A stretch of DNA of 64,000 bases from an uncultured Candidatus Saccharibacteria bacterium (GTDB lineage Bacteria; Patescibacteriota; Doudnabacteria; UBA920): assembly GCA_964436545.1 (NCBI GenBank), contig CAYTCJ010000001.1, positions 142,392-206,391 on the forward strand, written 5' to 3'. Of this stretch, positions 10,143-56,859 are shown piece after piece (positions within the stretch are counted from its first letter, which is position 1; every line of letters begins with the position of its first letter). The translations under genes and the position numbers were made by a program. The notes below the pieces were generated by a model. It was not told the DNA's origin, ran no database searches, and saw only the letters and a list, made by a program, of their open reading frames with translations.

Positions 10143-11024
10143 ATGTTAAGTCTACTAACAATTTTACATTATTTGATTGCTGCAATTGTTGACACTTTGG
10201 ATAAATTTTTAATTTCCAAAAGAAAGATTCAGCCCGTGGCTTATACTTTTTGGAGCGTGATTACAGGTTTAGGAATTTTGGCAGTTTGGCCGTGGGTGTA
10301 CGAAAAAATTAGTTTAGGGCAAATGGGCCTAGACTTACTTTCGGGCGTGTTATTTAGTTTGGCCTTATATGTATTTTTAAAAGCCTTGTCCCAAGGTGAA
10401 GTTTCTCGAGTAATTCCGTTTATATTCGGGTTAGTACCCATATTTGATTTGCTGATTGGAAAAATTGTGGGACAAAATGCTTTATTCAGCCAAGAAATTT
10501 CGGCTATCTGTTTATTGGTACCCGGAGCCTTGATTATTTCCTACAAACCAAATTTTTGGGGAAAGCATTTGGTATTAAAGACCATGTCTGCCTTTTTGTG
10601 GAGCTGTAATTTTGCTTTGTGGCAATTTGTTGCCAAAACCGGAAATACGTTTAACCATTTTATGTTTAATCGGTTAGGGGCGGCCGGAATTTTAATTTTG
10701 TTTTTGGTTTGGCCGTACTACCGAACTTTGGTTTTTAAAAGAGAAACGGAAAGTAAACGTAAAGGCACAGTTGGTTTGTTTTTATTTAAACAAGTTTTGG
10801 GCGGGGCGAATATGATTTTTTTCAGTTGGTTGATTGTAGTGGGTAAAATTCCGTTGGTAAATGCTTTGCAGGGGTTTAGGTATGTGTTTTTATTCTTAGG
10901 AGCGTTATTCCTAAGTAAGAAAATGAAGCATTTATTAGAAGAAGATATTACTTCTAAAGTGGTAATGCAAAAAGTATGTGGGTTAGTTTTGATTATTTTA
11001 GGCACATTAGTATTATTTTTATAA
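10143..11024 (+). CDS. Integral membrane protein (DMT/EamA-like, ~9 TM)
   Basis: Hydrophobicity pattern only. Confidence 0.5.
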   Translation: MLSLLTILHYLIAAIVDTLDKFLISKRKIQPVAYTFWSVITGLGILAVWPWVYEKISLGQMGLDLLSGVLFSLALYVFLKALSQGEVSRVIPFIFGLVPIFDLLIGKIVGQNALFSQEISAICLLVPGALIISYKPNFWGKHLVLKTMSAFLWSCNFALWQFVAKTGNTFNHFMFNRLGAAGILILFLVWPYYRTLVFKRETESKRKGTVGLFLFKQVLGGANMIFFSWLIVVGKIPLVNALQGFRYVFLFLGALFLSKKMKHLLEEDITSKVVMQKVCGLVLIILGTLVLFL

Positions 11025-11028
11025 TCAA

Positions 11029-11189
11029 GGACCTACGCTCTTGCCACTTTAGACTTGGCAGAGCCAAGCCCTTAAAGTGGCTTTGGTCAATTTCTTCGTT
11101 AAAATACTGTGGTTTTTGTCGCCGTAGCTCCACTACGCCTCCAAAAATCCTCGTATTTTGCCTAGAAATTGCCTCAAAAGCGTAAGTCC
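11029..11189 (+). mobile_element. MITE-like structured repeat, copy A (subfamily 1), TIR GGACYTACGC/GCGTAAGTCC
   Basis: Near-identical to copy D; immediately 3' of the stop codon of the preceding + strand gene. Confidence 0.7.
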
Positions 11190-11193
11190 TGAT

Positions 11194-11240
11194 AATAAAG
11201 AATACGGACTTCTGGGACATTCCCAGAAGTCCGTATTCTG
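11194..11240. terminator. Perfect 19-bp palindrome GAATACGGACTTCTGGGA-CAT-TCCCAGAAGTCCGTATTC
   Basis: Seen directly. Confidence 0.5.
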
Positions 11241-11251
11241 GGGGAATATGA

Positions 11252-12232
11252 ATGAAAAAAAATTTGTTAAAATTATTGATTGGTTTTGTGGTAATTTTGG
11301 TTTTTTTATCTTTCTACGCCGGCAAAAAGGCTAAAACAATTGTTTACGGGATTACTTTTAGTCCTTACCAAGCAATTGAGTTAGGTTTAGATTGGCGGGC
11401 AACTTATTTGGCGCTTTTAGATGAAGTTGGCGTTAAACATTTGCGCTTGAGTGCGTATTGGAACCGAGTAGAGCCAAAGGCCGGCGAGTTTGATTGGACC
11501 GATTTGGATTTTCAAATTCAAGAAGCGCAAAAGCGAAAGGCGCAAATTGTTTTAGCCGTAGGCCGGCGTTTACCACGTTGGCCGGAGTGTCATGACCCAG
11601 AATGGCTTGCCAAAAAAGATTTTGCCCCAAGTTTAATGGCTTATGTGGAAGCGGTGGTGAATCGTTATAAAAATAATCCGGCGGTGGTTATGTGGCAGGT
11701 GGAGAACGAAGCCTTTCATTCGGTGTTTGGCATTTGTCCTAAATTAGACACCGCTTTGTTCGATAAAGAGATTGCTTTGGTAAAACAGTTAGACCCCGGC
11801 CGGCCCGTAGTCATTACCGATAGTGGCGAATTATCTTTGTGGCTGAAAGCTGGAAAAAGAGGCGATGCGTTTGGCTCTACTTTGTATCGGCACGTATTTT
11901 CCGATGTGTTTAACCGTTATTGGATAAACTATAATCCGTATTGGCTTTATCGGGCAAAAGGTGGTTTAATGAAATTATTGAATGGAAAAAAAGAATTAAT
12001 GATTATTGAGCTTCAGGCCGAACCCTGGACTACTAAGGGAATTTTAGGCACCTCCATTGAAGAGCAGTTTAAAACCATGAGTATGGAAAAGTTTAAAACC
12101 ATACTTTCCGTAGGCAAAGCGATTGGTTTTGAAAAACAGTATTTATGGGGTGGGGAATGGTGGTATTGGATGAAGCAAAACGGGCACCCGGAATTCTGGG
12201 AAACAGCAAGAATATTAATGAACAAAAATTAA
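11252..12232 (+). CDS. Membrane-anchored TIM-barrel glycoside hydrolase (GH5/GH113/GH42-like)
   Basis: N-terminal TM segment; WQVENE motif with catalytic Glu. Confidence 0.6.
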   Translation: MKKNLLKLLIGFVVILVFLSFYAGKKAKTIVYGITFSPYQAIELGLDWRATYLALLDEVGVKHLRLSAYWNRVEPKAGEFDWTDLDFQIQEAQKRKAQIVLAVGRRLPRWPECHDPEWLAKKDFAPSLMAYVEAVVNRYKNNPAVVMWQVENEAFHSVFGICPKLDTALFDKEIALVKQLDPGRPVVITDSGELSLWLKAGKRGDAFGSTLYRHVFSDVFNRYWINYNPYWLYRAKGGLMKLLNGKKELMIIELQAEPWTTKGILGTSIEEQFKTMSMEKFKTILSVGKAIGFEKQYLWGGEWWYWMKQNGHPEFWETARILMNKN

Positions 12233-12239
12233 AAAATTA

Positions 12240-12400
12240 GGACTTCCGCTCTTGCCACTTAAACTTCGGCAGAGCCGAAGTTCTAAAGTGGCTTTGGTCA
12301 ATTTCTTCGTTAAAATGCTCCGTTATTTGTCGCCGTAGCAAAACTACGGCTCCAAATATACTCGCATTTTGCCTCGAACTTGACTCAAAAGCGTAAGTCC
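12240..12400 (+). mobile_element. MITE-like structured repeat, copy B (subfamily 2)
   Basis: 161 bp, 1 mismatch to copy C; directly follows a stop codon. Confidence 0.7.
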
Positions 12401-12483
12401 TAAAATGACAAAAACGACGAAAGCTTTGTCTATTAGTAGCATACTTTTTGTCAATTTTGTTCATTTGTGTAAATTTTGTCAAT

Positions 12484-13245
12484 ATGAATAACATTGTTGG
12501 TTTGGATATTGGCGGAACTAAAATCAATGGCGTGGTGGTTAGTGGAAAAACCATTTTACAAGAACTTACAGTGGCAACCCCCAAAAGTTGGCCGGAATTT
12601 AAAGTTGCCATTAAAGCCATGGTTAAGCAGTTAAATGCAGGGTATAAAATTTTCGCAGTGGGAGTAGGGATCCCTGGGGCAATAAATAACCACGGCAAAG
12701 TGCTTTATGCTCCCAACTTACCCTATTTAGTCAACCGAAATTTATTAGGTTTTTTACAAACCTTAAGCGTTAAAAAGATAAGTATTGAGAACGATGCCAA
12801 CTGTTTTGCTTTGGCGGAAGCTTATTTGGGGCAAGGACAAGGTTTAAAAAATTTTATAGGCATAACTTTGGGCACGGGGATTGGCGGAGGTTTAATTTCC
12901 AATGGGCAACTGTATGTTGGATTGCATGGGAGCGCATGCGAAGTCGGGCATATGATGGCAGACGAGCGCAATACCTATGAGGAATTATTCCAAATTTATC
13001 GGGAACAAAATAATTATTCGGCTTTGGGGAAATTATTAGGCCGACTGTGGGCGGATATTTATAACTTAATAGATGTGGAAGCGATTATTTTAGGCGGGAG
13101 TGTAACCAAATCCGCCAATCAATTTTTGGCTTATGCTTTGGCGGAATCACAACAGAGAATTTTAAATAAGCGTATCCGGCCCAAAATAATTATTTCTAAA
13201 TTAAATAATGCCGGCTCTTTAGGCGCGGCATTATTACCTTTATAG
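12484..13245 (+). CDS. ROK-family sugar kinase (glucokinase-like)
   Basis: IVGLDIGGTK; DANCFALAEAYLGQG; GSACEVGH. Confidence 0.85.
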   Translation: MNNIVGLDIGGTKINGVVVSGKTILQELTVATPKSWPEFKVAIKAMVKQLNAGYKIFAVGVGIPGAINNHGKVLYAPNLPYLVNRNLLGFLQTLSVKKISIENDANCFALAEAYLGQGQGLKNFIGITLGTGIGGGLISNGQLYVGLHGSACEVGHMMADERNTYEELFQIYREQNNYSALGKLLGRLWADIYNLIDVEAIILGGSVTKSANQFLAYALAESQQRILNKRIRPKIIISKLNNAGSLGAALLPL

Positions 13246-13405
13246 GACTTCCGCTCTTGCCACTTAAACTTCGGCAGAGCCGAAGTTCTAAAGTGGCTTT
13301 GGTCAATTTCTTCGTTAAAATGCTCCGTTATTTGTCGCCGTAGCAAAACTACGGCTCCAAATATACTCGCATTTTGTCTCGAACTTGACTCAAAAGCGTA
13401 AGTCC
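13245..13405 (+). mobile_element. MITE-like structured repeat, copy C (subfamily 2)
   Basis: Its first base is shared with the TAG stop of the ROK kinase. Confidence 0.7.
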
Positions 13406-13428
13406 TACTTTGTTAAAAAAAATAGGGT

Positions 13429-19139: not shown

Positions 19140-20039
19140 TTGTCAAAGTTAAAAATCCCCAGCATAATTATTTTTGTAACCGTCTTAATTTATTTTTTAA
19201 GTTTGGTTTTTTCCGGTCGCTGGGTTTTACCTCAAATTATATCTTTCGGAGCGCTATCGATTCACTATTACGGAATAGTTATGGCTGTGGCAGTGGGTTT
19301 TGGTTATAAATTGGCCATGCACCGAACGCAACTTTATGAAATAGCTTTACCTTGGGCGGAAAAATTATTTTTTTGGGTAATTATTGGCGGATTGGTTGGA
19401 GCTAGAATTTATCATGTTTTTTCATCGGTTAGTTATTATTCTTTGCACCCGATGGAGATTTTAAAAGTTTGGCATGGCGGTTTGTCTATTTACGGCGCTT
19501 TGATTGGTGGATTTCTGGCTTTGCTTCTGTGGAAAAAACTTACAACTTACCTGCCTTGTCGGCAGACAGGCAACTTACCTGCCTTGTCGGCAGACAGGCA
19601 ACTTACAACACTTCTAAATTGGCTAACTCCCTCGCTCATTCTCGGTCAAATTATTGGTCGGTTTGGAAATTTATTTAATTACGAAGTTTATGGTTACCCG
19701 ACTAATTTACCTTGGAAGTTATTTGTGCCCAATGAATTTAGAGTTTTGGGTTATGAAGCTTTTGCTTTCTATCACCCGTGGTTTTTATATGAACAAATCG
19801 GCTTAATTTTAATTTTCATCCTCTTTAAGGTGTATTTTAATTTAAAATCCGAGCGCTTGTTTGTTTACTACGTTTTATTGTATAATTTAATGAGATTTGG
19901 TCTGGAATTTTTAAGAATTGATAGCCATTTCATTGGGCCTTTTAGGCAAAATGCTGTGGTGAGTTTATGCTTTGCGGTGGGGGCTTTGGGTTTGATAATT
20001 TATTGGAGAGTTTTAAAATCAGCTAACAATGCGTCTTGA
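19140..20039 (+). CDS. lgt: Prolipoprotein diacylglyceryl transferase with an in-frame hairpin insertion
   Basis: YYGIVMAVAVGFGY; WHGGLSIYGALIGG; GRFGNLFNYEVYGYPTNLPW. Confidence 0.85.
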   Translation: MSKLKIPSIIIFVTVLIYFLSLVFSGRWVLPQIISFGALSIHYYGIVMAVAVGFGYKLAMHRTQLYEIALPWAEKLFFWVIIGGLVGARIYHVFSSVSYYSLHPMEILKVWHGGLSIYGALIGGFLALLLWKKLTTYLPCRQTGNLPALSADRQLTTLLNWLTPSLILGQIIGRFGNLFNYEVYGYPTNLPWKLFVPNEFRVLGYEAFAFYHPWFLYEQIGLILIFILFKVYFNLKSERLFVYYVLLYNLMRFGLEFLRIDSHFIGPFRQNAVVSLCFAVGALGLIIYWRVLKSANNAS

Positions 20040-20781
20040 TTTAACCAAATATCATAAATTTAGCGCCGGGGCCTTAAGCGCCTTGTATGTTTGGGTGCTG
20101 TATAATTGGACTACCCCGGTACCTATTTTTAGGTTTCTTTTGCCCGCATTTTTATGCATCTTGGGACTAACAGCGTATTATAATTTAAAATATTTAACCA
20201 CAGGGCAAGCTAAAAATGTTTGGCCCATTTTGCGAGTGGCGCTTTTACAGTCAGCCGGGTTTTTATTATTTTTTGTTATGCCTAGCGCGCCGGCCCGAAT
20301 AATGTTTTTGATGATCTCTTTCATTTTTTTGTTTATTTCGGAATATTTAATTTTAGATTTTTCGGAAAATATTTTATTTAACGAAGTGATTTTAATTTCC
20401 TTTGGGTTTTTTTACGGGTTTAACGGACTCTTGTGGAATTTTCCGACTTTTAATTATATCGGTCTCTTGGCCTTATTCGTAGTGTTAAGTTTATTAACTC
20501 GGTGTTTTTATGAATTTGCACCTTTAACCGCTAAGGCGAAATGGATAAACGCTTTGGTTTTGGCTTTTTTATCGGCACAAATTTTTTGGGCTTGTTTGTA
20601 TTTACCTTTTCATTTTTCGGCATTAGCGGTGATTGGGTTTAACTTGTATTATTTATTAGTCGGCTTAAATTATTTTTATATTTTTAATACTTTAACGGAA
20701 AAGAAATTTAAATTTTATGTCGGTTTGTCCGGAGTGTGCATTTTACTGGTAATGCTCACCACGCCTTGGAAAATTTTATAA
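20029..20781 (+). CDS. Hypothetical polytopic membrane protein
   Basis: ORF with ~7 hydrophobic helices. Confidence 0.5.
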   Translation: MRLDLTKYHKFSAGALSALYVWVLYNWTTPVPIFRFLLPAFLCILGLTAYYNLKYLTTGQAKNVWPILRVALLQSAGFLLFFVMPSAPARIMFLMISFIFLFISEYLILDFSENILFNEVILISFGFFYGFNGLLWNFPTFNYIGLLALFVVLSLLTRCFYEFAPLTAKAKWINALVLAFLSAQIFWACLYLPFHFSALAVIGFNLYYLLVGLNYFYIFNTLTEKKFKFYVGLSGVCILLVMLTTPWKIL

Positions 20782-20785
20782 TCAG

Positions 20786-21010
20786 GGCTTACGCTCTTGC
20801 CACTTTAGACTTGGCAGAGCCAAGCCCTTAAAGTGGCTTTGGTCAATTTCTTCGTTAAAATACTGTGGTTTTTGTCGCCGTAGTTCCACTACGGCTCCAA
20901 AAATCCTCGTATTTTGCCTGGATCGTGATGATTTGGCTTGAGTTCGGGCTCAGCCCGAACTTTAAAGCCAAATCAAGCTCTTGTCGAAATTGCCTCAAAA
21001 GCGTAAGTCC
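20786..21010 (+). mobile_element. MITE-like structured repeat, copy D (subfamily 1) with an extra 62-bp nested hairpin
   Basis: As copy A plus GATTTGGCTTGAGTTCGGGCTCAGCCCGAACTTTAAAGCCAAATC inserted before the 3' TIR. Confidence 0.7.
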
Positions 21011-21086
21011 TGATAATCTTTTCTGCCTGAGCGTATCGGCAGAATAGGGCTATCGCTTTACATTAATTATCATTTAACCCTTACCA

Positions 21087-25144: not shown

Positions 25145-26524
25145 ATGAGTAGCACTGTAGGTAAAAATTATTCCACTACCGAGGAAGTTGCAAAATTACT
25201 TCATTTTTTTGACGAGCCAAAGACCGCTCATCACTCAGAAAATCACACTCATTCCGTAAGTCACGAACCTGAGCAGAATCATCAGCAATCTGATGTAGAG
25301 GTTCATCATTCAGAATCGTCCCATATTCACGGCGAGTCCTTAGAGGAAGATACTCAGACACATTCGAGTGCTTGGCAAAGCCGAATTAGCAAAGTTTTAG
25401 TGGCCATTATTCCTTACGGGGTGGTATTTATTGTGGGAGCAGTGGGGTATTTTTTCTTCTTGTCCAATTCCAATTTTGATGTAAATGTGATCAAACAAGT
25501 TGCTCCTAAGTCTTCGGGTTTACCGGTGGCAATTAAAGATTCGGAAATTTTGGCTTTGCAAAAAAATAACGAAGTGTTAAATCAGTATTATGCTTGGATT
25601 AACAAGTATTATTTTGATGTTTCCGATGCCGGGATTTTAGACCCGAATACCGACAACTCCGGCAATGGGTTAAGTAATTTTCATAAGTATTTGCTGGGCT
25701 TAAGTCCGAAAGCTTATGATTCGTTAGGTTTAGGCATGCCGGATAGCCAAGCTATTGCCCATGGCATTAACCCGTTAAGCGGGGGTAAATTAACCGCCCA
25801 GCAACAAGAGATTGTAGATAAATATTTTGATTTGGAAATTATTAACAATCGCTTGACTTTAGAACAATTAAGCAAGCAAGGTTATGTGGCGGGCAAGAGC
25901 ATTACCAATAATAATTCGTTGGATACTTATAATTCATTTAACTCAAGTAACGATTCTTCACAATTAGAAACAGCCAGGAATGGAATTAAGTTAGTTCAAA
26001 GACCCAATGGGCCAATTACTCAAACTTTAGCTCAAGATAATCCGGTTTTATCGGAAATTGATTCTGCCAATATTAATGTAGATGTTGCCGGCAGGTTGGA
26101 AATTCCTTCGTTGGGGATTAATGTGCCGGTAATTTGGACTAAAAATCCCAAAAATTTTGAAAAAGATTTGCAAAGCGGTGTGGTGCATTATCCTGGCACA
26201 GCTTTACCCGGACAAATCGGGACTGCCTATATTTCCGGTCACTCCAGTAACTATGCTTGGGCCAAAGGCGAGTATAATAAAGTTTTTAGCAAACTCGGAG
26301 ACTTACCCAATAACAGTTCGTTTATTGTGACAGTAGTGCAAAAAAATGGTAAAGATGCCAGATTGCATTATGTAGTAACTAAGCGACAGGAATTTTCACC
26401 GACTGACCAAGAACAGTTTAAAAATACCGGAGATTCTTTGGTAGCGCTATCGACTTGTTGGCCAGTGGGGAGTACAAAATCGAGACTTGTAGTCTTTGGT
26501 AAATTAACTCAAGTGGAAAAGTAG
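25145..26524 (+). CDS. Sortase (transpeptidase) with His-rich N-terminus and TM anchor
   Basis: Catalytic His in YISGHSS and Cys in LVALSTCWP (TLxTC-like); adjacent to a sorting-signal substrate. Confidence 0.8.
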   Translation: MSSTVGKNYSTTEEVAKLLHFFDEPKTAHHSENHTHSVSHEPEQNHQQSDVEVHHSESSHIHGESLEEDTQTHSSAWQSRISKVLVAIIPYGVVFIVGAVGYFFFLSNSNFDVNVIKQVAPKSSGLPVAIKDSEILALQKNNEVLNQYYAWINKYYFDVSDAGILDPNTDNSGNGLSNFHKYLLGLSPKAYDSLGLGMPDSQAIAHGINPLSGGKLTAQQQEIVDKYFDLEIINNRLTLEQLSKQGYVAGKSITNNNSLDTYNSFNSSNDSSQLETARNGIKLVQRPNGPITQTLAQDNPVLSEIDSANINVDVAGRLEIPSLGINVPVIWTKNPKNFEKDLQSGVVHYPGTALPGQIGTAYISGHSSNYAWAKGEYNKVFSKLGDLPNNSSFIVTVVQKNGKDARLHYVVTKRQEFSPTDQEQFKNTGDSLVALSTCWPVGSTKSRLVVFGKLTQVEK

Positions 26525-26861: not shown

Positions 26862-29800
26862 ATGCAAAGATTTAAATCACTTATAACTTTAAAGGTCTCA
26901 GTTTTAACCTTTGTGGGCCTGTTCCTCTTAGTTGGAACGGTTTTGGCTTTGGCGCCCAGACAAATTACCACTACCAAAGCTGAAAATTGTTACAATGCCC
27001 CGGAAGTTGCCACTTTAAACCCATTTCCAGTGTCTTGGAATGGGGTTACTGGCAGTGATTGTACTGATGCACCGGTGATTGCGATTAGAAATGCCAATGG
27101 GGGCAGTTATGCGCAAAGTGCCAGCGCCCAAGTGGGTGAAGAGTTAAGAGTCAGAATTTATATTCACAATGGTGCTCAGCAAGGTTTAGATACCAACTTA
27201 ACTACCTCTTTAGGGGTAAACGGGGGTATGTATATTAATGGAAATAACATTTCCATGACAGCGACAGCCAGCCGAGGTGATGGTAATGGCGGATATATCC
27301 CGACTAATTCTGTGAATGGTTCTGTGAATGTCGATTTGCCCAGCGGGGCTACTTTGGAAATGATTCCGGGAAGCGAGGAATTTTATGACTATCAGGCTAA
27401 CCGAATCTATTCCGGTTCCGCCGGTTTTTACGGACAGAGCGGAGTTTTTGACATGCAAAATATGGAAGCTTGTTTTGAGTTTTCTAAATTCTTTGTTTTT
27501 AGAGTTAAAGTGATTGGTGAAACCGGCGGGGGTATAAACCCTCCTGCAAATCCCGGCTCTGGTTGGTTAACTGCCAGTTTAGCCGGCACGGTGCCCAACC
27601 AATGCTTGTATAAAGCTAGAGTGCAATGGGATACGGAAAATATGTCCCAAGTGTTGGTGACTGTTTCCAATCCGGAGCAAAATTCCGACAATTATTATGG
27701 TAACGACGTAGTCTTTTCCTATTCGCCAAACAGTGACGAAACTGTTAATTGGATAAATCCTAATGATGGTTATAGGTTTACCCTGTGGGAAGTAAATCCT
27801 GCCAGCGGTGGTCAAAACATGAATGTGGCGGGACAAAATTTATTGGTTAAACACATTGCCGAGCAATGGGTAAGTGGTGGTGATGATAATTTTTGCCACA
27901 CTCCGGTAGCTGATTTAGTATGTTCTCCGGGCAGTCAAAATGCCATGGGGAATGACATTGTTTTATTTAATGCCCAAGGCGGGGATGAAACTTCCGAGTA
28001 TGTTTGGTCAGCCCCGGGTGGTTTTAACCAGCAAAGTAATGGGAAAAATTTTCATGTCACTTATCCGGCTCAGGCCAGTGGAAGTTTTACGGTCACAGTT
28101 TCCAATGCCGGACAGACGGCTGAATGTGTTGTGCATGTAAGTCCCAGAGAACAACAAAATACTAATTATGAATTACACGTTTATAATCAAAACGGTCAAT
28201 TAAAGGACAACGGAGAGTTTTGTGTGGGCGATACCCCACAATATAAAATTACCGGTAATGCTACCATTGCTGGGAGTAAAATTTTGTGGAGTTCTAGAAA
28301 AAATAACGTGCAAACCGGTGAATTTGATGCAGACTATGGTTTTACGTTAAATGCTCAAGGTAATTGGAGCGAATGGGGTTCCACTTGGAATAGTAGTCAT
28401 ATTGGTGATTGGGAAAAACAATCTAATGTTAACTATGTTTTAAAAACTGTAAGTTTTAGAGTGAAGGATTGTTCTAATACTCCTCCGCCTCCAGTGGCAG
28501 TTTGTCCAAGTCAAAATCTTTCTGGATACCCCACAACCATTAAAATTGGGGAATATGCAACTGTTTTAGCTCCAGCTGGTTGGAATGGCGGTACTTTAGT
28601 ATCTTCTAACCCAAATGTGGCTCCAGTTTTTGGTGGAAATAGTGTGGTTGGTAGAGCTCAAGGTAGTACTAATGTTTCTGGTACTGGCTTTACCGCACCA
28701 AACGGCGCCACCAATTGTGCTTTAGGTGCAGTAAATATTACTGTTACCCAAACTCAAACTCCTCCACCTTCAGCCGTGTGTCCAACTGGACAAAGTGTTT
28801 CTGTTTCTCCTGCCTCAATTAAAGTAGATGAGTATGCTACAGCTTATGCGCCTAGTGGCTGGTATGGTGGATCTTTTAGTTCATCTAATTCCAATGTTGC
28901 CTCAATTTCCGGTAGTAGCATAAGAGGTAATGCTCAAGGTACTGTATCAATCTCCGGTTCCGGGTTTACTGCTTCTAACGGCGCCACCAATTGTGCTTTA
29001 GGTGCGGTGAATGTTTCCGTGACCCAAACGCAAACTCCGCCTCCGGCAGTGTGTCCGAGCGGGTATAGTTTAAGCGTTTCCCCAACTTCCTTTAAAGTAG
29101 GCGAATACGGTTATATTACCGTGCCCAGCGGATGGTATGGTGGAAATTTTACTTCTTCAAATACTTCAGTAGCTAATATATCCGGTATGTCGGTTTATGG
29201 TTACGGTGCCGGTACAGCCTCTATTTCCGGCTCAGGCTGGACTGCTTCTAACGGCGCTACCAATTGTGCTTTAGGTGCGGTGAATGTTTCCGTGACCCAA
29301 ACTCCGCCTCCGGCTGTTTGTCCAACCGGCGCTTATGTCTCTGTTTCTCCCGCTTCCGTAAAAGTAGGTGAATATGCTACAGCTTATGCGCCTAGTGGCT
29401 GGAGTAATGGGAGTTTTAGTTCTTCAAATTCTTCTGTGGCTTCTGTTTCCGGCAATAGCATAAGAGGTAATGCTCAAGGTGCTGTATCAATTTCCGGTTC
29501 CGGGTTTACTGCTCCTAACGGCGCTGTTAACTGTGCCTTAATCGGAGCGAGTTTAAATGTGACCATTCAGCCTCCTCCTCCGGCAGAATGTCCAAGTAAT
29601 GCCAGCGTGAGAGTGACTCCGGCTAATATTTATGTAAATGATTTTGCCACTGTTTCCGCTCCGGCTGGTTTTAGTAACGGAAGTTTTGTTTCTTCCAATC
29701 CTTCAGTAGCCAGTTTGGTAGATGGTGCCAGAGGTAATTCAATCAAAGGTTTATCGGCCGGTACGGCTTATGTGTCCGGAACTAACTGGACTGCGCCTAA

Positions 29801-32411
29801 CGGGGCTGTTAATTGCAGTTTAAGCAGTGATTCAATTACAGTAAGTAATCGACCAATTCAGCCTCCGGCAGAAGTTACCGCCAGTGCCACCGCTACCGCC
29901 AGTGCCACCGCTTATGCCAGCTGTCCAGATGGCACCAGAGCCAGCGCCAGCGCTTCGGCCAGTGCCACTGCCACCGCGACCGCGAGCACCAGAGGTGAAG
30001 CGGAAAAGTTAGCTTACGAAAGGGCCTATGCTCAAGCTGAAGCTATGGCCTATGCCCAAGCTGAAGCCAAGGTAGTTTGTAAAGAATTACCCCCACCGCC
30101 TCCAGCTCAATTAACCTGTTCCCCAATTCAACAAACCGCGGATGTTAACCAGACTGTGAATTTTTCCGCTAATGGCGGAAATGGGACTTACACTTGGACC
30201 GCCAACGGCGCCGTAATTACCAGCGGTAACGGCAGTCAATTTAGCACTCGTTATACTCAAGGCGGCAGTAAAGTGGTAAGTGTAAGTAGCGGAAATCAAA
30301 CGCAAAATTGTTATGTGCAAGTTAATCAAGTTCAAACAGAAGCGTTAACTTGTACCACTTTAACTCCGGAAGTGGAAATTAACCAAACTGCCAATTTTAG
30401 GGCTACCGGCGGGGCGACCTCGGCTTACGCTTGGCAAGCTTTGGGAGCTAATCCGGCCAGTGGCAACGGACGTGATTTTAGCACTAAATTCAGTTCCGCG
30501 GGTTATAAAACCGTCTTTGTGCAAAATGGTTCTGCTACCGAAAGCTGTTCGGTGAGAGTTAAAGAACCTGTCCAGTCCAATGCGGAAATGGAATTGGTAA
30601 AGACCGTTCGAAATCTTACCGACAATACCGACTTTAGTCATAACGTAAGCGCTAAACAAAACGATAAAGTAGAATACAAAATTTTTGTGAGAGCTTTAAC
30701 CGCTACTGCTTTGCGCAATGTTAGAGTTACCGACGAAATGCCTTTCGGTTTAATTTACGAAGCCGGTAGTTTAAAAGTGGACGGTCAAAGCTCCAATCCG
30801 GGCTTGACGAGTGGTGGTTTAGTGTTTGATACGGTTAATCAAAATGGGATTACCATTACTTACCGAGCGACGGTAAATGTGAATAGTGGCACCCTTACCA
30901 ATTTGGCCCGAGCTACGGCCGATAATGCCCAAAGTAAATTAGATCGAGCCAATATTACTGTAGTGCCGGTTGTTCAAGGTCAACCAACTTTAAGCATAAC
31001 TAAAGAAGTTAGAAACTTAGGACCTTCTCAGACTACTAACTTTACTTCTTCGGTAAATGCCAAAAAGTCCGATACCGTTCAATATCGCATTACGGTTAGA
31101 AATGTGGGCAATGCCACAGCTAACAATGTGGTCTTAAGCGACTCCAGCATTATTATCAATTCCATTACCGGTTTGTCTGTTTCCAAAACTTATTCCGGCA
31201 CCTTGTCAAACGGTTTGAATTTAGGCAGTTTGGCTCAAGGTGAAAATGTCATTATCACTTACAATGCCAATGTGTCCATTGAGCAGGGTGAAATTAGAAA
31301 TACCGCTACGGTCTCGGCTTCTAATGCTTCTACCGAAAGAGCCATTGCTTTAGTTAATGTGATCAAAGACAATGAACCACCGGTCAATCCGCCGGGCGGA
31401 GGGAGTACTAATATTATCAACACTTGTGTAAACAATTCCTGCAACAACACGAATATTGTTTACATCAACCAAACCGGAGGCACTGTGCCGGCAAATGACT
31501 TTAGACAACTTTCTATTTCAAAGTTAGTCAGAAGTATTAATGGTGGAGCGTTCCAAGACAGTGTAAGCGTTAACAATAACGATACCGTGGAATTCGAAGT
31601 CATTGTAAGAAATACAGGGAATCAGGTAGTTAATAATGTCATCTTAAACGATACCTTTAGCTCTAATTTGTATTTGGTTTCCGGTACGGTGAGAGTAGAT
31701 GGTAATTATTGGGGTGATAATATTAACTCAATTAATTTAGGTAGTATTTTAAGCGGTCAGCAAAAACGGGTGGTGTTCCAAGCTAGAGTTAATGGTGCTT
31801 CCGGTCAAACCGTACAAAATATTGCCAGAGTTTACGGCGATAATGCCAATCAAGTGCAGGATGACGCTTGGGTGTTTGTGCAAGGTGGTCAAGTGCAAGG
31901 GGGTAATGTAAATTTGGTTTATAGCAAAAAAGCAGTAAACGAAACCAAGAATACCGAGGCTACCGCTGTTGTAGCCAGTAAAGAAGATTATATTACCTAT
32001 ACCTTAACCGTAACCAACTCCGGTAATGTACCGGCTAACAGTTTTGTGATCACCGATGACTTAAGCCAAGTTTTACCTTATGCCGATATGGTAGATAACG
32101 GCGGTGGATCTTTATCCGGAAATATTTTGTCTTACCCCGGCATTACCATCCCAGCGGGGGGCAGTGTAAGTAAGAGCTTTAAAGTCAGAGTCAAATTTGC
32201 TTTAGCAGCTAACTTGTCTTACACCATGACTAACACTTATGGCAATACCGTAAGTATCCGCATTAATACCCCGCAAGTTTTAGGTGCTTTTGTGGCTCCG
32301 AAAACCGGTGGGCCTTCCGCTCAAATGGCTTCTATCTTTGGTACCTTAATGGTTGCCGGTATGGTAGTAGTGAGAAATAGAAAAAAAGTTTTGGAACTTA
32401 TCTGGAGTTAA
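26862..32411 (+). CDS. Giant cell-surface protein (1849 aa): signal peptide, ~6 tandem Ig-like (Big_2-like) repeats, Ala/Thr/Ser low-complexity linker, DUF11-like conserved repeat domains, C-terminal sortase sorting signal
   Basis: DNA tandem repeats of ~270 bp across 28480-29860; C-terminus APKTGG followed by a hydrophobic helix and RNRKK. Confidence 0.85.
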   Translation: MQRFKSLITLKVSVLTFVGLFLLVGTVLALAPRQITTTKAENCYNAPEVATLNPFPVSWNGVTGSDCTDAPVIAIRNANGGSYAQSASAQVGEELRVRIYIHNGAQQGLDTNLTTSLGVNGGMYINGNNISMTATASRGDGNGGYIPTNSVNGSVNVDLPSGATLEMIPGSEEFYDYQANRIYSGSAGFYGQSGVFDMQNMEACFEFSKFFVFRVKVIGETGGGINPPANPGSGWLTASLAGTVPNQCLYKARVQWDTENMSQVLVTVSNPEQNSDNYYGNDVVFSYSPNSDETVNWINPNDGYRFTLWEVNPASGGQNMNVAGQNLLVKHIAEQWVSGGDDNFCHTPVADLVCSPGSQNAMGNDIVLFNAQGGDETSEYVWSAPGGFNQQSNGKNFHVTYPAQASGSFTVTVSNAGQTAECVVHVSPREQQNTNYELHVYNQNGQLKDNGEFCVGDTPQYKITGNATIAGSKILWSSRKNNVQTGEFDADYGFTLNAQGNWSEWGSTWNSSHIGDWEKQSNVNYVLKTVSFRVKDCSNTPPPPVAVCPSQNLSGYPTTIKIGEYATVLAPAGWNGGTLVSSNPNVAPVFGGNSVVGRAQGSTNVSGTGFTAPNGATNCALGAVNITVTQTQTPPPSAVCPTGQSVSVSPASIKVDEYATAYAPSGWYGGSFSSSNSNVASISGSSIRGNAQGTVSISGSGFTASNGATNCALGAVNVSVTQTQTPPPAVCPSGYSLSVSPTSFKVGEYGYITVPSGWYGGNFTSSNTSVANISGMSVYGYGAGTASISGSGWTASNGATNCALGAVNVSVTQTPPPAVCPTGAYVSVSPASVKVGEYATAYAPSGWSNGSFSSSNSSVASVSGNSIRGNAQGAVSISGSGFTAPNGAVNCALIGASLNVTIQPPPPAECPSNASVRVTPANIYVNDFATVSAPAGFSNGSFVSSNPSVASLVDGARGNSIKGLSAGTAYVSGTNWTAPNGAVNCSLSSDSITVSNRPIQPPAEVTASATATASATAYASCPDGTRASASASASATATATASTRGEAEKLAYERAYAQAEAMAYAQAEAKVVCKELPPPPPAQLTCSPIQQTADVNQTVNFSANGGNGTYTWTANGAVITSGNGSQFSTRYTQGGSKVVSVSSGNQTQNCYVQVNQVQTEALTCTTLTPEVEINQTANFRATGGATSAYAWQALGANPASGNGRDFSTKFSSAGYKTVFVQNGSATESCSVRVKEPVQSNAEMELVKTVRNLTDNTDFSHNVSAKQNDKVEYKIFVRALTATALRNVRVTDEMPFGLIYEAGSLKVDGQSSNPGLTSGGLVFDTVNQNGITITYRATVNVNSGTLTNLARATADNAQSKLDRANITVVPVVQGQPTLSITKEVRNLGPSQTTNFTSSVNAKKSDTVQYRITVRNVGNATANNVVLSDSSIIINSITGLSVSKTYSGTLSNGLNLGSLAQGENVIITYNANVSIEQGEIRNTATVSASNASTERAIALVNVIKDNEPPVNPPGGGSTNIINTCVNNSCNNTNIVYINQTGGTVPANDFRQLSISKLVRSINGGAFQDSVSVNNNDTVEFEVIVRNTGNQVVNNVILNDTFSSNLYLVSGTVRVDGNYWGDNINSINLGSILSGQQKRVVFQARVNGASGQTVQNIARVYGDNANQVQDDAWVFVQGGQVQGGNVNLVYSKKAVNETKNTEATAVVASKEDYITYTLTVTNSGNVPANSFVITDDLSQVLPYADMVDNGGGSLSGNILSYPGITIPAGGSVSKSFKVRVKFALAANLSYTMTNTYGNTVSIRINTPQVLGAFVAPKTGGPSAQMASIFGTLMVAGMVVVRNRKKVLELIWS

Positions 32412-33269: not shown

Positions 33270-34490
33270 ATGGATCAAACTTATTTAAAAGAATTAATTG
33301 AAGAAGTCAATAAACGCCAAGGCGGGGTGATTTTGAATTTGGATAATTCGCCTTCGGCCGTGGTTTTGTCCATTGAAAAATATAATCAGTTAATCAGCAA
33401 TCAGCAATCAGCGAATCAGCAATCAGCAATCAGCGAATCAGCAATCAGTAGTTCCTCCTTCGCTTCCAACTTCGCTGATGCTTCGTTGGACAAGAAAGCT
33501 ATGGAGGATAAACAGCAGTCAGCGAATCAAACCATTTTGGTTACCGGCGGGGCAGGGTATATTGGCGCGCATTTGGTTAAACAACTTTTGCATGCCGGGT
33601 ATAAGGTTGTGGTGGTGGATAATTTATCTACCGGTAAAAGAGAAAACGTTCCCAGCCAAGCAATTTTCTTAGAAGGCGATTTAGCCGATGTAAATTTTTT
33701 GCGTGATGTGTTTTCCGCGCATAACATTTCCACAGTTGTGCATTTGTCCGCATCGATTGAAGTGGAAGAATCGGTAAAAGAACCGGTAAAATATTTTGAA
33801 AACAATGTTTTAAATTCCGCTAAACTGCTTTTGGTTATGGATGAGTTTAATGTGCGAAAGTTAATTTTTTCTTCCACCGCAGCCGTGTATGGAGAACAAA
33901 AACAACAACCCATTTCCGAAACTGCCCTCCCAAAGCCCAATAATCCTTATGGACACAGTAAACTGTTAGCCGAGCAAGTGATTGAATATTACTGCACTCA
34001 TAAGCAATTTACCGCAGTGGTGTTTAGATATTTTAATGCTTGTGGGGCGGATTTTGAAGGCAATATAAAAGCTACGCACGAATCGCATTTGCTCGCCAAA
34101 GTTATGCAAGTGGCGCACGGCCATGTTGCGCAAATTGTGGTGAATGGGGCCGATTACCACACCCCGGACGGCACTTGTGTCCGGGATTATGTGCACGTGT
34201 TGGATATTGTCGGTGCCCATATTTTAGCGTTAAATAAATTCGGAGAGTTAAAAGGTTTTGAGGTTTTTAATATTGGCACTGGCCAAGGAGTAAGCGTTTT
34301 GGAAATTATTAATGCCACAGCGGAATATTTAAATAAAATGATTCCTATGCAAATGGGGGAAAGGCGAGCGGGCGATGCGGAAGAAACCGTGGCTGATGCG
34401 GAAAAAATTAAACAGTATTTGGGTTTTAAACCCATGTTTAGCGATTTGGAAACCATAGTCAAAACAGCTTATAAACAATCGGCGAATTAA
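33270..34490 (+). CDS. galE: UDP-glucose 4-epimerase fused at its N-terminus to a ~50-aa Phd/YefM-like domain through a 7-bp-microsatellite-encoded Q/S-rich linker; the GalE core probably starts at M 33500
   Basis: ILVTGGAGYIGAHL and YGHSK in the GalE core; N-terminal MDQTYLKELIEEVNKRQGGVILNLDNSPSAVVLSIEKYNQL; (AATCAGC)n at 33402-33450. Confidence 0.85.
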   Translation: MDQTYLKELIEEVNKRQGGVILNLDNSPSAVVLSIEKYNQLISNQQSANQQSAISESAISSSSFASNFADASLDKKAMEDKQQSANQTILVTGGAGYIGAHLVKQLLHAGYKVVVVDNLSTGKRENVPSQAIFLEGDLADVNFLRDVFSAHNISTVVHLSASIEVEESVKEPVKYFENNVLNSAKLLLVMDEFNVRKLIFSSTAAVYGEQKQQPISETALPKPNNPYGHSKLLAEQVIEYYCTHKQFTAVVFRYFNACGADFEGNIKATHESHLLAKVMQVAHGHVAQIVVNGADYHTPDGTCVRDYVHVLDIVGAHILALNKFGELKGFEVFNIGTGQGVSVLEIINATAEYLNKMIPMQMGERRAGDAEETVADAEKIKQYLGFKPMFSDLETIVKTAYKQSAN

Positions 34491-39884: not shown

Positions 39885-41336
39885 ATGGGTTTAGTTTTTC
39901 AAAATATTTTTTGGCTTACAGCTTCAAGGGCAATTGCCCTTGTTTTGCTGTTTTTAGCTTATACTCAATTATTTAGATATTTAGGACCTTTTGGCAACGG
40001 ACAATACCAATTTGTGTTGTCTTATGTTTTAATTTTTTCCACGGTGGTGGATTTTGGCGTTCAGCAATTCATTACCAAAAAAATTACCGAAGAGCCGGAG
40101 AAAACCACGGAATATTTTAAGAGTTTTTTTAAATTTGAAATTTTGGCTTCCGGATTTTTATTTGTCCTGTTAATGAGTATTGCTTACTTAAAGGCTTTTG
40201 AAGCCCCATTAATTTCCGCTATTTGGGTTACGGGTTTGGGAATGGTAGTTAATGGTTTATGCTATCCGTATTTGGCAGTGTTAACCGCCAAGCAAGATTT
40301 AAAAAAAGTGGCAATCATCAATTTTTTAAATTCCTTGGTTAATGTAAGTGTGATTTTTCTGGCGATTTGGCTAAAAAAATACATAGTTTTTTTAGCCAGC
40401 ATCCAACTGATTTTTGGCTTAATGGATTGGGTGTTGTATAGGATGTTTGTAAAAAAATATTTATCAACCCCCCCTACCCCCCCTTTAGACAAAGGGGGGG
40501 AGGAAGATCGTGCTTTAGACAAAGTTGATAAGTTAGGGGGGGCTGTTGTAATTTTAAATATTCTTAAATCTGCGTGGCCTTTTGCTTTACTGGTCGGTTT
40601 TAGCGCAATTTACAACCGCATTGACGTAGTGATAATTACCGGCATGCTCGGGTTTGCGCAAACCGGAATTTACACTTCGGCCTATAAGTTTTTTGATTTG
40701 CTCAATTTTTTCCCCGCTTCGGTGTCGCACGCGCTTTTTCCCGCGTTGTCCGGCTTTATGGCCACAGGTAAAATTGCCGAGGTAAAAATCACTTTGGAAA
40801 AATATTTAAGACTTATGATAGCTATTGCTGTGCCTATGGCTGTGGGTGGAGCTATTTTATCAGGACAATTAATTTTACTCGTGGCCGGAGAACGGTTTTT
40901 GGAAGCGGGTAAAATTTTAGCGATTCTCATTTGGGCCATAGCAATACTATTTATTTATATTCCTGTAAATTCTTTAGTAATTTCTCAGTTAACCAAAAAA
41001 GCAGTTGTGATTACCGGAGTAAATGTTATACTGAATATTGTGGGGAATATAGTCTTGTTGCCCATTTATGGGATTAAGGGTTCGGCAATAATGACAGTGG
41101 TTAGCGAGTTAGTCCAAGGTGGTTTTTATTTTTATTTGGTTAAAAAAAATATTACGGATTTCGCTTTTTTCTCTCTGCTGTGGAAACCCGCTTTGGCCAG
41201 TGCGATTATGGGTGTAATGGTTTGGCAAGTTAGAGAAGTAAATTTATTAACGGGTGTTTTTCTTGGGGTGGTAAGTTACACAGTAAGTTTGTATTTACTT
41301 AAGTTTTTTAAGGAAATTAATATAAAATTTTTTTAA
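39885..41336 (+). CDS. Polysaccharide flippase (MOP/Wzx-like), 12-14 TM
   Basis: Hydrophobicity pattern and genomic context; carries a G/C-hairpin insertion. Confidence 0.65.
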   Translation: MGLVFQNIFWLTASRAIALVLLFLAYTQLFRYLGPFGNGQYQFVLSYVLIFSTVVDFGVQQFITKKITEEPEKTTEYFKSFFKFEILASGFLFVLLMSIAYLKAFEAPLISAIWVTGLGMVVNGLCYPYLAVLTAKQDLKKVAIINFLNSLVNVSVIFLAIWLKKYIVFLASIQLIFGLMDWVLYRMFVKKYLSTPPTPPLDKGGEEDRALDKVDKLGGAVVILNILKSAWPFALLVGFSAIYNRIDVVIITGMLGFAQTGIYTSAYKFFDLLNFFPASVSHALFPALSGFMATGKIAEVKITLEKYLRLMIAIAVPMAVGGAILSGQLILLVAGERFLEAGKILAILIWAIAILFIYIPVNSLVISQLTKKAVVITGVNVILNIVGNIVLLPIYGIKGSAIMTVVSELVQGGFYFYLVKKNITDFAFFSLLWKPALASAIMGVMVWQVREVNLLTGVFLGVVSYTVSLYLLKFFKEINIKFF

Positions 41337-53367: not shown

Positions 53368-54537
53368 ATGAATTTAAAATTTTACAATTGCCCGGAGCCG
53401 GCTGAGTTAGATACAGGCCTTTTACCCAAAGAGGTAAATTTTTTAAGTTACCTGCCGGATTTTAAGTTATTGGAAGCTTTTAAATTAGCTTATGCCGACT
53501 ACAAAAATATTTTAATTATCGGACACGGGGGCAGTATTACCAGCTCGGATGCATTTTATAACAGCCTTAAATATTCTTTGGAATTAAAAAGAGTGGAATT
53601 TTTAAATACCACAGATCCCGATTATATTAATTTTTTAAAGCACAGTTTAAACCCCAAAGAAACTTTGATTTTGGCAATTTCCAAAGCGGGTGAAACTATA
53701 ACTCAGTGGGAAATGCTCACGCAATTTTTAGATTTTTCCATTGTGGTGGTAACGCAAAAGAGTAGTCCGCTGAGAGCTTTAGCGGAAAAACTCAATTTAA
53801 AAATTGTTACTCATCCGCCCATTGGCGGACGGTATACCGGTTTAACGGAAGTGGGTTTATTGCCTGCGGAATTATGTGGAATATCCGGCAAAGCCATTTT
53901 AGCCGGAGCCAAGGCGGTGTATGCCAATTTTTACAAAGCCAATCCCGCATGGAATTTGGCCTCGGTTTTGTTTCAACTGGAAGCGCAAGGCAAGGTAGAT
54001 GTGTTCATGCCTTTTTATAGTCAGGCGTTGTTTGCTTTTAATAAAATTATTATTCAGTTATGTCACGAAAGTTTTGGCAAAGCCGGTAAAGGACAAACTT
54101 TTTTTGCCCACGAATCTCCGGAGAGTCAGCACCATACTAATCAAAGATTTTTTGGTGGACAAAAAAATATTTGCGGTTTGTTTATCAGCCAGCAACGTTT
54201 CAAACACAATCTGCTAAGTGTGTATCCGGCTCAAACTCACAGTGTGCAAATTAAGGGCCATAGTTTGTTTGATATTAACAAAATTCCGTTAGCGGAATCT
54301 ATGCACAGTGAACTTCTGGGAACTTTGCAAAATGCGCAAGTGGCGGGGATTCCCAGTATGCATTTGGAAATTTCGGAAATTACTTTGGAAAAAATGGGTG
54401 AATTTATGGCTTTTTGGCAGATCTTTGCAGTCTATGCTTCGGTATTAAGACAGGTGGATCCTTTTAACCAGCCCGAGGTGGAAAACAGCAAAAATATTTC
54501 CTTCACTAATCGATTAAAGTTTAAGGGGTTGTTGTAG
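53368..54537 (+). CDS. pgi: Probable glucose-6-phosphate isomerase (short SIS-domain type)
   Basis: IIGHGGS; AISKAGETITQWE resembles the PGI SKTFTTxET segment. Confidence 0.5.
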   Translation: MNLKFYNCPEPAELDTGLLPKEVNFLSYLPDFKLLEAFKLAYADYKNILIIGHGGSITSSDAFYNSLKYSLELKRVEFLNTTDPDYINFLKHSLNPKETLILAISKAGETITQWEMLTQFLDFSIVVVTQKSSPLRALAEKLNLKIVTHPPIGGRYTGLTEVGLLPAELCGISGKAILAGAKAVYANFYKANPAWNLASVLFQLEAQGKVDVFMPFYSQALFAFNKIIIQLCHESFGKAGKGQTFFAHESPESQHHTNQRFFGGQKNICGLFISQQRFKHNLLSVYPAQTHSVQIKGHSLFDINKIPLAESMHSELLGTLQNAQVAGIPSMHLEISEITLEKMGEFMAFWQIFAVYASVLRQVDPFNQPEVENSKNISFTNRLKFKGLL

Positions 54538-54609
54538 CTTGCTAATGGTTGGGTAAATTCAGTATAATGTTAAAAGATGCCTATAAATACCTAATCTCTT
54601 TACCTATTT

Positions 54610-56289: not shown

Positions 56290-56391
56290 TGGCTTAAATA
56301 AGCGATAAAAAATATTTTTTGCCTTACCCTTTGACAAAATTTATATTTTATAATAAAATTATCAAGATTATTAATTATCTGGTAAATCCAT

Positions 56392-56640: not shown

Positions 56641-56676
56641 CATTTGCTAAATCTTAACCGCTAAACGCTAATAAAT

Positions 56677-56790: not shown

Positions 56791-56859
56791 TTAATCTACC
56801 TATTAACCGATTATTTTAATTGGTTATAAATTTATCATTATAAATTATTTAAACTATCT

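Follow-up and report, generated by a model that had tools for sequence, protein, structure and literature searches.

The 64,000-nucleotide stretch analyzed here (hereafter, the window; positions 142,392 to 206,391 of contig CAYTCJ010000001.1, GenBank assembly GCA_964436545.1) harbors four full copies and one decayed 5' half of a repeat of about 165 bp, all of them on the + strand. The data make it very probable that this repeat is a foldback-type miniature inverted-repeat transposable element (MITE), a non-autonomous DNA transposon of Candidatus Doudnabacteria, in the Candidate Phyla Radiation (CPR, Patescibacteria), moving through the steps proposed below. A preliminary description of the window had read the repeat either as a MITE at gene 3' ends or as a mobile terminator or RNA module, and the first of these readings is supported by 5-bp target-site duplications, by empty sites in three relatives and by similarly placed copies in other Doudnabacteria. 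The family is previously undescribed, within the well-known kind of the bacterial MITEs, and no description of MITEs in CPR/Patescibacteria was found in the searchable literature. Members of this radiation have very small, gene-dense genomes, where mobile DNA is generally regarded as scarce. In the window, genes are tightly packed and G+C amounts to 38%, with about 70% of the genes on the + strand, and the glycoside hydrolase encoded ahead of one of the copies has its nearest named homologues in Candidatus Doudnabacteria.

Copies, target-site duplications and empty sites

The 30-nt pattern CGCTCTTGCCACTT-N8-GCAGAGCC, taken from the conserved 5' part of the element, presented five matches in the window, all on the + strand, against none expected in shuffled sequence, and the right-terminus pattern presented four matches against 0.16 expected, excluding a chance match for the repeat. 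A repeat finder recovered the same family, with four full copies and a fifth, partial one. The boundaries of the element were set from the target-site duplications, at YAGG...CCTR, and the copies were scored with the covariance model described below.

Copy A (11026-11191, + strand; 166 bp, 179.5 bits) lies 1 nt past the TAA of an EamA-family transporter gene (10143-11024) and is flanked by the duplication ATAAT (11021-11025 and 11192-11196), the left copy of which includes the stop codon. Copy B (12238-12402, + strand; 165 bp, 180.5 bits), which serves as the reference copy, lies 5 nt past the TAA of the glycoside hydrolase gene (11252-12232), and its flanks (AAAAT/AAATG) constitute an imperfect duplication within an A-run, where the register is ambiguous. 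The first three bases of copy C (13243-13407, + strand; 165 bp, 180.3 bits; flanks CTTTA/CTTTG) are the TAG stop codon of a ROK kinase gene (12448-13245). Copy D (20783-21012, + strand; 230 bp) lies 1 nt past the TAA of a gene encoding an unknown 250-aa protein (20029-20781), is flanked by ATAAT (20778-20782 and 21013-21017) and carries in its right arm a nested hairpin insert of 66 nt (20920-20985, + strand) that occurs nowhere else in the window. Lastly, copy E (57251 to ~57345, + strand; 23 bits) is a decayed 5' half, its 3' half having been lost, in the rpsM-rpsK spacer, 1 nt past the TAA of rpsM (56860-57249; ribosomal protein S13). Copy E is unchanged in an independent assembly (L006), and a 6.5-kb Logan contig is identical to window positions 54302-60764.

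The preliminary description had located the same five copies on the + strand behind stop codons, but the true ends lie 1-3 nt further out, copy E can be aligned to ~57345 instead of 57300, and the nested hairpin of copy D, correctly recognized, measures 66 nt and not 62 bp. The distance from the stop in the window, given as 0-5 nt, ranges from -3 to +5 nt, with copy C itself supplying the TAG. Copies B and C differ, as reported, at a single position (99% identity); copies A and D, which had been called near-identical, share 96% identity outside the insert.

Five further copies were detected in two other Candidatus Doudnabacteria genomes. An exact-pattern scan using one genome per species returned three hits (L1, L2 and L3, in loci L001, L002 and L003, respectively), all of them in the metagenome-assembled genome JBBRWU01, which is the sole other GTDB representative with copies. 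A covariance model built from seven copies revealed a second copy in L001 (L1b) and a divergent copy (L25) in L025, from a relative with 86% identity in the adjacent amidohydrolase; L1 and L25, which are 68% identical, are found at one and the same site. The exact pattern misses variants such as L25, and the range of the family is hence underestimated. No copies were found in the loci fetched from other relatives (~180 kb, including overlapping contigs of the same regions) or in three scans of viral contigs, and the only two hits of a pattern scan in metagenomes (L004 and L005) were GC-rich chance matches to unrelated sequence. The abundance stated in the preliminary description refers to five copies in the 64 kb of the window, and the public collections searched added copies from only two other genomes.

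A perfect 5-bp target-site duplication was identified in five of the eight full copies (ATAAT in A, D and L1, ATTAC in L2 and CAAAT in L3), C and L1b match at 4/5 positions, and the tenth copy, L25, presents ATAAT/CTAAT. Across the window, 5-mers at the same spacing match perfectly in 0.18% of cases and at 4/5 positions in 2.2%. The duplicated target is AT-rich, most often (T)ATAAT, and the exact TATAAT precedes four insertions. The ends of the element are inverted (YAGGACTTACGC...GCGTAAGTCCTR), as previously proposed, although imperfect within single copies (GGACCTACGC in A, GGACTTCCGC in B and C, GGGCTTACGC in D). In copy B the left terminal inverted repeat (12238-12250, + strand) pairs with the right one (12390-12402, + strand; AGCGTAAGTCCTA), and as a two-ended pattern the termini read TAGGACTTACGC / GCGTAAGTCCTA. 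Over nine copies, the 13 terminal pairs of the inverted repeats (YAGGACTTACGCT / AGCGTAAGTCCTR) are 93% paired, with four of them changed on both sides. A TA duplication of the IS630-like type was the first candidate considered. Copies B, C and L1-L3 alone could be read in this way (TA/GG...CC/TA), but it was ruled out by copies A and D, with CAGG...CCTG flanked by ATAAT, and by the 5-mers ATTAC and CAAAT.

Evidence of recent insertion was provided by three related genomes, represented by L007 (87% nucleotide identity), L008-L011 (hydrolase 82% identical in amino acids) and L012-L018 (71%), which keep the order EamA, glycoside hydrolase, ROK and ScpB with short spacers and have no element at sites A, B and C. 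Site A is empty in L007, L008 and L012: L008 reads TTTTTATAAT followed directly by TATC, where the window reads TTTTTATAAT, the element and ATAAT. At site B both flanks are conserved in L007, and the extra DNA delimited by BLAST is exactly window 12236-12401, with a 4-nt overlap. At site C the ROK orthologue of L008 ends in ...LLFKKK and its stop, and the window shows TTGTTAAAAAAAATAG right after the element; from this comparison, copy C probably landed a few codons ahead of the old ROK stop, replacing it. Synteny is broken in the relatives at site D, which is uninformative. The site shared by L1 and L25 is empty in L030 (AAAATATGCTATAAT followed directly by ATAGGA), L019, L022 and L026-29.

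Copies within a genome are 93-99% identical, with L1, L2, L3 and L1b sharing 93-98% identity among themselves, and the same sites are empty in relatives, indicating that the amplification is recent and lineage-specific. The earlier claim of recent mobility is thus borne out by precise empty sites at A, B and C. The element shows recent bursts, with four insertions (A-D) within 10 kb, and the sites of A-C are empty in L007, despite its 87% identity. The duplications and the empty sites also rule out that the repeats are a conserved part of these operons. The same data bear on an integron-like origin, in which a gene-repeat array of attC sites would have each repeat belong to the preceding gene. 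Copies A, B and C do each follow one gene, in sense orientation and at or just past its stop, and they are imperfect palindromes of attC-like size. However, the same gene order is present without repeats in three relatives, so that gene and repeat do not move together, and the 5-bp duplications are variable. Furthermore, the ends are YAGG...CCTR instead of GTTRRRY/RYYYAAC cores, and no integrase adjoins the array in the window. The attC reading is refuted by the empty sites, and its probability is practically negligible.

The element hence presents the features by which bacterial MITEs are recognized: it is non-coding, it measures 165 bp (185-230 bp with nested inserts), its duplications are constant in length (5 bp) and variable in sequence, and filled and empty sites coexist with near-identical paralogous copies. 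No protein homologues of its sense and antisense open frames were found among 5.8 billion proteins, which agrees with the earlier view that open reading frames (ORFs) called across the copies are artefacts. Searches against Rfam 15 at the gathering threshold returned a single hit in the window, a tRNA, and none on the element even at E<=10.

In L001 (3363-4231), L1 and L1b bracket, in direct orientation, ~520 bp of degraded AbiE-like toxin-antitoxin gene fragments. L025 presents intact AbiEii genes after its single copy, and in L019 and similar relatives MurD directly follows the amidohydrolase. The element at L001 borders an inserted accessory block, and it could have helped move or degrade this block.

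Pairing and covariation

The fold of the element encompasses a 13-bp terminal stem (P1), a local hairpin (P2) and a long, near-continuous arm with a small apical hairpin. In copy B, P2 (12254-12292, + strand; GCCACTT...GGC-AGA-GCC...AAGTGGC) is located 16 nt inside the left arm, and its sequence varies by subfamily while the pairing is kept. The long arm (helices 3-5; 12293-12389, + strand) contains helix 3 (12293-12305 with 12376-12389; alignment columns 56-68 with 160-173), with 11 of 12 pairs invariant in the nine aligned copies, helix 4 (12311-12328 with 12354-12371) and the apical hairpin (12333-12349). Without P2, the left end reads TAGGACTTACGCT-CTT-TTTGGYCAATTTC, the mirror of the right end. 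Compared with shuffles, folding energies are strongly negative on both strands (-67.4 kcal/mol, z = -9.3, on the + strand; -77.3 kcal/mol, z = -11.2, on the - strand). Copies L2 and L1b constitute a subfamily with an extra ~21-nt hairpin (CCTGCCTTGCCGGCAGACAGG / CCTGTCTGCCGGCAGGCAGG) near the apex of the long arm (L002 5765-5830 region; L001 3410-3435), and this insert, together with the 66-nt insert of copy D, indicates that small hairpins repeatedly nest in the element.

In the alignment of nine copies, 92.9% of cells are paired, and 19 of the 63 pairs are changed on both sides, against 7.4±1.8 in shuffled alignments (none of 500 reaches 19) and 0-7 with slid partners. The covarying pairs are located in P1, P2, helix 4 and the apex, with four both-side changes among the 13 pairs of helix 1 and six among the 16 pairs of helix 2 (P2). 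The divergent L25 keeps 52 of the 63 pairs, with swaps from AAAA/TTTT to TTTT/AAAA and from CGTAG/CTACG to CGTAC/GTACG. The hairpins with compensatory changes outlined in the preliminary description, as well as the covariation it had proposed to look for, are therefore substantiated by this alignment.

Sense-only tolerance of G·U pairs, as expected of a structured RNA, was not observed. The sense strand presents 13 G·U cells, of which a single invariant pair contributes nine, whereas the A·C cells, equivalent to G·U on the antisense strand, number 20. One-sided changes of the G·U type amount to two cells, and many of the compensatory changes are transversion swaps. The pairing is under selection, but the sense RNA strand is not singled out, and, given the lack of a sense-strand G·U bias, a constraint at the DNA level fits equally well. 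Such a constraint could consist of co-evolving transposase-binding ends, of hairpin extrusion or of arm-to-arm palindrome correction.

Hairpins conserved through their pairing, and not their sequence, would also be expected if the element were REP-like and moved as single-stranded DNA by a HUH/Y1 transposase of the RAYT or TIRYT type, which would explain the covariation as well as a bias in strand. All copies lie on the gene-sense strand, the apical stem contains GTAG in most of them, and a related Doudnabacteria contig carries a Y1_Tnp gene with flanking 20-nt inverted repeats (L022 5707-6711). HUH transposition (IS200/IS605, REP elements), however, yields no target duplication, whereas variable 5-bp duplications are found at the copies of the element. 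In addition, GTAG lies within the stem, not as an unpaired tag, and reads GTAC in L25, L022 has no copy of the element, and its inverted repeats are unrelated in sequence. A length of 165 bp with terminal inverted repeats is also unlike the 20-40 bp of REPs (PMC3733652). Taken together, these data render this mode of movement very improbable.

The preliminary description had also contemplated a mobile terminator. No proper intrinsic terminator was detected in the element, where the only candidate, a weak one, is a 9-pair stem with three GC pairs and tail CAATTTCTTC in B and C; P2 is followed by UUUGG. With no stem of normal quality and U-tract in the element, and with a strong hairpin lying just downstream of it at A and L2, the latter with a T-run as in a typical terminator, this alternative is not supported. 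From the position of the downstream hairpin, transcripts of the upstream gene at A and L2 should extend through the element, and most likely the elements in general form structured 3' or intercistronic RNA in a common transcript with the upstream gene.

Transcription of the element is also pertinent to the possibility that it is an exapted RNA module, whose transcript would serve the host by stabilizing or processing the upstream mRNA, as a structure in its 3' untranslated region, or as an intergenic terminator-plus-promoter cassette. The strong conserved fold with covariation is compatible with this role, as are the strict sense orientation, the promoter-like right junction described below and the location of the elements at A and L2 between a stop codon and a strong downstream hairpin. 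Furthermore, ERIC elements of Yersinia exert orientation-dependent effects on mRNA stability (PMC2229807). In contrast, three close relatives share the operon but have none of the insertions A, B and C, which are hence recent additions, the antisense strand folds better, and sense-strand G·U cells are not enriched (13 vs 20). Moreover, the many transversion swaps among the compensatory changes (A-T to T-A, G-C to C-G) fit a DNA palindrome as well, and the element has neither a proper U-tract terminator nor an Rfam match. A role as RNA module is accordingly deemed improbable, and a host function is not needed to explain the elements.

The hairpin downstream of copy A (window 11199-11239) is a perfect 19-bp stem (AGAATACGGACTTCTGGGA...TCCCAGAAGTCCGTATTCT; -33.6 kcal/mol, z = -8.9) that starts 7 nt after the copy and precedes the hydrolase gene. 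In L007 and L008, different hairpins, of the C-run/G-run type, occupy the spacer between the site of A and the hydrolase, so that this spacer carries lineage-specific hairpins.

Placement behind stop codons

All ten copies are co-oriented with the upstream gene, and nine of them start between -3 and +14 nt from its stop codon (+14 in L1 and L25, +6 in L2 and L3). The earlier claim that the element is always inserted immediately after a stop is therefore valid for nine of the ten copies, within 14 nt, but not for L1b, at ~82 nt. Of the 58 stop codons in the window, 40 are TAA, and TAAT is common.

We propose that the element would be moved in trans by a DDE-type transposase, generating 5-bp staggered cuts, whose gene lies at another position of the genome. 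The two transposase-binding ends would correspond to the long arms (P1 plus helices 3-5), with the invariant helix 3 as the likely binding site, and P2 would be an old hairpin insertion in the left arm, its pairing kept possibly because the left end recovers its geometry when P2 is extruded. The AT-rich target and TAA(T) often overlap, and a position behind a stop codon would be the least harmful landing place in a compact genome. As for the sense orientation, it leaves the conserved TTGNCT of the right end 15-18 nt ahead of the duplicated ATAAT-like pentamer, and the gene that follows would thereby regain a promoter-like junction.

The outward -35-like hexamer on which this last step relies (TTGACT at 12380-12385 in copy B, + strand), with a putative promoter function, is conserved as TTGNCT in 9/9 full copies, separated by 15-18 nt from the best -10-like hexamer, which lies downstream at the right junction. 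In A, D, L1 and L1b, TTGNCT is followed at a spacing of 16-17 nt by a -10 hexamer that matches in 5/6 positions or more, with junctions TTGCCT-16-GATAAT (A and D), TTGTCT-16-AATAAT (L1) and TTGACT-17-TATAAT (L1b), and the inverted orientation would supply no comparable -35. At L1 the duplicated ATAAT lies 6 nt ahead of the downstream ATG, and the empty site of L030 presents TATAAT 6 nt ahead of its ATG. The arrangement of these motifs suggests that some targets could be the -10 boxes of the next gene, whose promoter would be rebuilt only in the sense orientation. Promoter rebuilding would then explain the orientation bias by selection, and would follow in part from the target preference itself.

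Several observations weigh against a MITE mobilized and retained in this manner. No transposase was detected by Pfam scans of 39 ORFs in the window and 10 ORFs in L001-L003, and no autonomous partner with matching ends was found in the window, L001-L003 or the viral contigs. To our knowledge, the combination of YAGG...CCTR termini and a 5-bp duplication matches no family of insertion sequences (IS). The covariation of the local hairpin P2 is not accounted for by the simple co-evolution of two transposase-binding ends. In the non-coding DNA of the window, which amounts to ~6.1 kb without the elements, only 8 of the 77 ATAAT sites on either strand are stop-adjacent and in sense orientation, and the target preference or the use of TAA(T) stops hence do not alone explain the placement. 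Copy L1b lies past a 56-codon gene fragment in a degraded region, with flanks that match at 4/5 positions. Lastly, the sample comprises ten copies from three genomes, with two of the copies at one orthologous site.

The same placement would result from directed insertion, in which the machinery would place the element at gene 3' ends in a single orientation, as Tn7 at glmS, replacing only the selection step of the above proposal. The cue could be an asymmetric TATAAT-like or easily melted site, a nearby dyad, or a feature linked to transcription or replication. If the ATAAT-like pentamers of the non-coding DNA were used at random, ~10% of insertions would show the observed configuration, against the ten co-oriented copies and the nine within 14 nt of a stop. 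Four insertions exactly follow TATAAT, a hairpin is found a few nt downstream at A, L2 and perhaps D and B, and L1 and L25, given their shared site and 68% identity, could be independent hits on a hot spot. On the other hand, the distance between stop and element varies from -3 to +14 nt, the pentamers (ATAAT, ATTAC, CAAAT, AAAAT, CTTTA) show no fixed sequence relation, and the downstream hairpin is absent at C, L1, L3, L1b and L25. In addition, neither the TGT...ACA termini nor the repeated binding sites of Tn7/Mu-type elements are present at the ends, and no targeting protein was found. Directed insertion is therefore considered unlikely, and the placement, which the preliminary description read as targeting of gene ends, may reflect either an insertion preference or selection after insertion. 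Targeting of terminator hairpins was discarded, since a downstream hairpin is present at only two to four of nine sites.

A bolder and doubtful reading would have the element placed on purpose behind stop codons, at TATAAT-like, easily melted gene-end sites and in one orientation, where, as a mobile "gene-boundary cassette", it would provide the preceding gene with a structured 3' end and the following gene with a -35 box from which a promoter is rebuilt. If true, such a cassette would rewire operons in the ultra-small genomes of the CPR.

In most copies, the divergent L25 among them, one sense frame of the element stays open for ~52 codons between the terminal TAG and the TAA of GCGTAAGTCC, and one antisense frame is open in A-C. 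By our estimate, a frame of 52 codons does not exceed chance expectation at this composition, and these open frames lead gene callers to place false ORFs.

The MITE interpretation has several implications for these genomes. The element is able to provide the stop codon of a gene, as copy C does, promoters may arise from its right end, and it breaks short-read assemblies besides yielding false ORF calls. The sense orientation of 10/10 copies, the stop proximity of 9/10 and a covariation that reaches the nested hairpin are its unusual points, and the strict placement offers a compact system in which to ask whether machinery or selection governs the positioning of small transposons. The covariance model can be used for masking or counting elements in Doudnabacteria genomes.

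Neighbouring repeats and relation to known systems

Other repeats and hairpins were observed in the window and its relatives. The Y1_Tnp gene of L022 (5707-6711) encodes a 313-aa protein of the IS200/RAYT type, and its flanking inverted repeats begin with GGGGTCAAG; the unit, which the syntenic L019 lacks, is inserted 8 nt past the stop of a TraG-like gene and resembles the "TIRYT" units (PMC3733652). A different foldback of ~190-215 nt, with perfect 17-20-nt arms (TTGAAAACAGTCTTCTGGCG / CGCCAGAAGACTGTTTTCAA) ~70 nt apart, is present in L022 (9786-10000) and L025 (3943-4134), filling the spacer right after the MraY stop, which measures 12 nt in L019; this foldback may represent a second MITE-like family with a behind-stop habit. 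In addition, a C-run/G-run hairpin (CCCCCCC-TTTAGACAAA-GGGGGGG, with a nearby TAGGGGGAG-like tail) was identified at window 40460-40505, L007 1085-1125 and L008 2955-3001. It occupies post-stop spacers in the relatives, and in the window it is located inside a polysaccharide-flippase ORF (39885-41336), in the opposite orientation. This hairpin may constitute a second family of tiny palindromic elements, in the window within a gene.

Three further repeats were noted in the window. A 55-nt unit is present in two tandem copies, 84% identical, from the stop codon of rplL (1074-1475) onwards (1468-1577), each unit ending in a small hairpin (ATCCCGAAC...TTCGGGAT), and looks like a duplicated terminator region. 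Tandem repeats of ~270 nt (28677-29540; three copies, 66-80% identical) lie within an ORF of 1849 codons (26862-32411), the product of which is presumably a large surface protein with repeated domains, beside a sortase gene (25145-26524). A microsatellite-like run of 7-8-nt units (33400-33450; ATCAGCAATCAGCGA repeated) is found early in ORF 33270-34490, which presents a weak N-terminal match to Phd/YefM antitoxins before an epimerase domain and may correspond to two genes or to a variable leader.

Among known systems, the fixed position of the element evokes Tn7, which at attTn7 generates a 5-bp target duplication and inserts in fixed orientation just downstream of the glmS stop, recognizing one conserved gene via a dedicated protein. 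The 5-bp duplication and the fixed orientation behind a stop are shared with the element, and Tn7 thereby sets a precedent for machinery-directed insertion. Unlike Tn7, the copies of the element are preceded by eight different genes, and the element measures 165 bp and has no Tn7-like ends or genes.

The REP/BIME palindromes, tagged by GTAG/CGTC, likewise lie mostly past the end of coding regions, where the neighbouring genes are co-directional or convergent, and are plausibly transcribed and species-specific (PMC3733652). REPs, in contrast, are 20-40 bp long, with an unpaired GTAG/CGTC tag and RAYT tyrosine transposases (PMC3733652), whereas the element presents 165 bp, terminal inverted repeats and 5-bp duplications. 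Membership in the REP/RAYT group was ruled out by the size and the duplications, as well as by the location of GTAG inside the apical stem and its loss in L25.

Closer resemblance is found among the palindromic MITEs. YPAL (RU-2) of Yersinia, with 168 bp, is similar in size, lacks a terminal TA, and presents target duplications and filled and empty sites between strains (PMC2229807). Its targets adjoin regions of dyad symmetry (PMC2229807), and the element resembles YPAL in this respect at A and L2, perhaps also at D and B, where a hairpin closely follows the insertion. YPAL, however, has duplications of 3-26 bp and internal inverted repeats (PMC2229807), whereas those of the element are constant at 5 bp and terminal, respectively. 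Correia/NEMIS of Neisseria and RUP of Streptococcus pneumoniae are also non-coding, gene-proximal and recently mobile MITEs of ~100-155 bp with terminal inverted repeats and target duplications, and Correia elements carry functional DNA motifs (PMC2229807). Both use TA targets, and RUP is tied to an IS630-type transposase (PMC2229807), unlike the element, which presents a 5-bp duplication, no known partner IS, a CPR host and the extra hairpin P2 nested in one arm.

Like the element, ERIC/IRU of enterobacteria and Yersinia, imperfect palindromes of 127 bp, are small, non-coding and mobile, occupy transcribed spacers and fold as RNA. ERIC-type MITEs typically present a terminal TA motif, and the orientation of ERIC determines its effect on the neighbouring mRNA (PMC2229807). 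The element differs from ERIC in its 5-bp duplication, in the absence of sequence similarity and of any Rfam hit, and in its sense orientation in 10/10 copies, where ERIC is found in both. Overall, the comparison suggests that the element functionally most resembles ERIC, Correia and YPAL, palindromic MITEs that are co-transcribed beside genes, and that among these ERIC would provide the best functional analogy.

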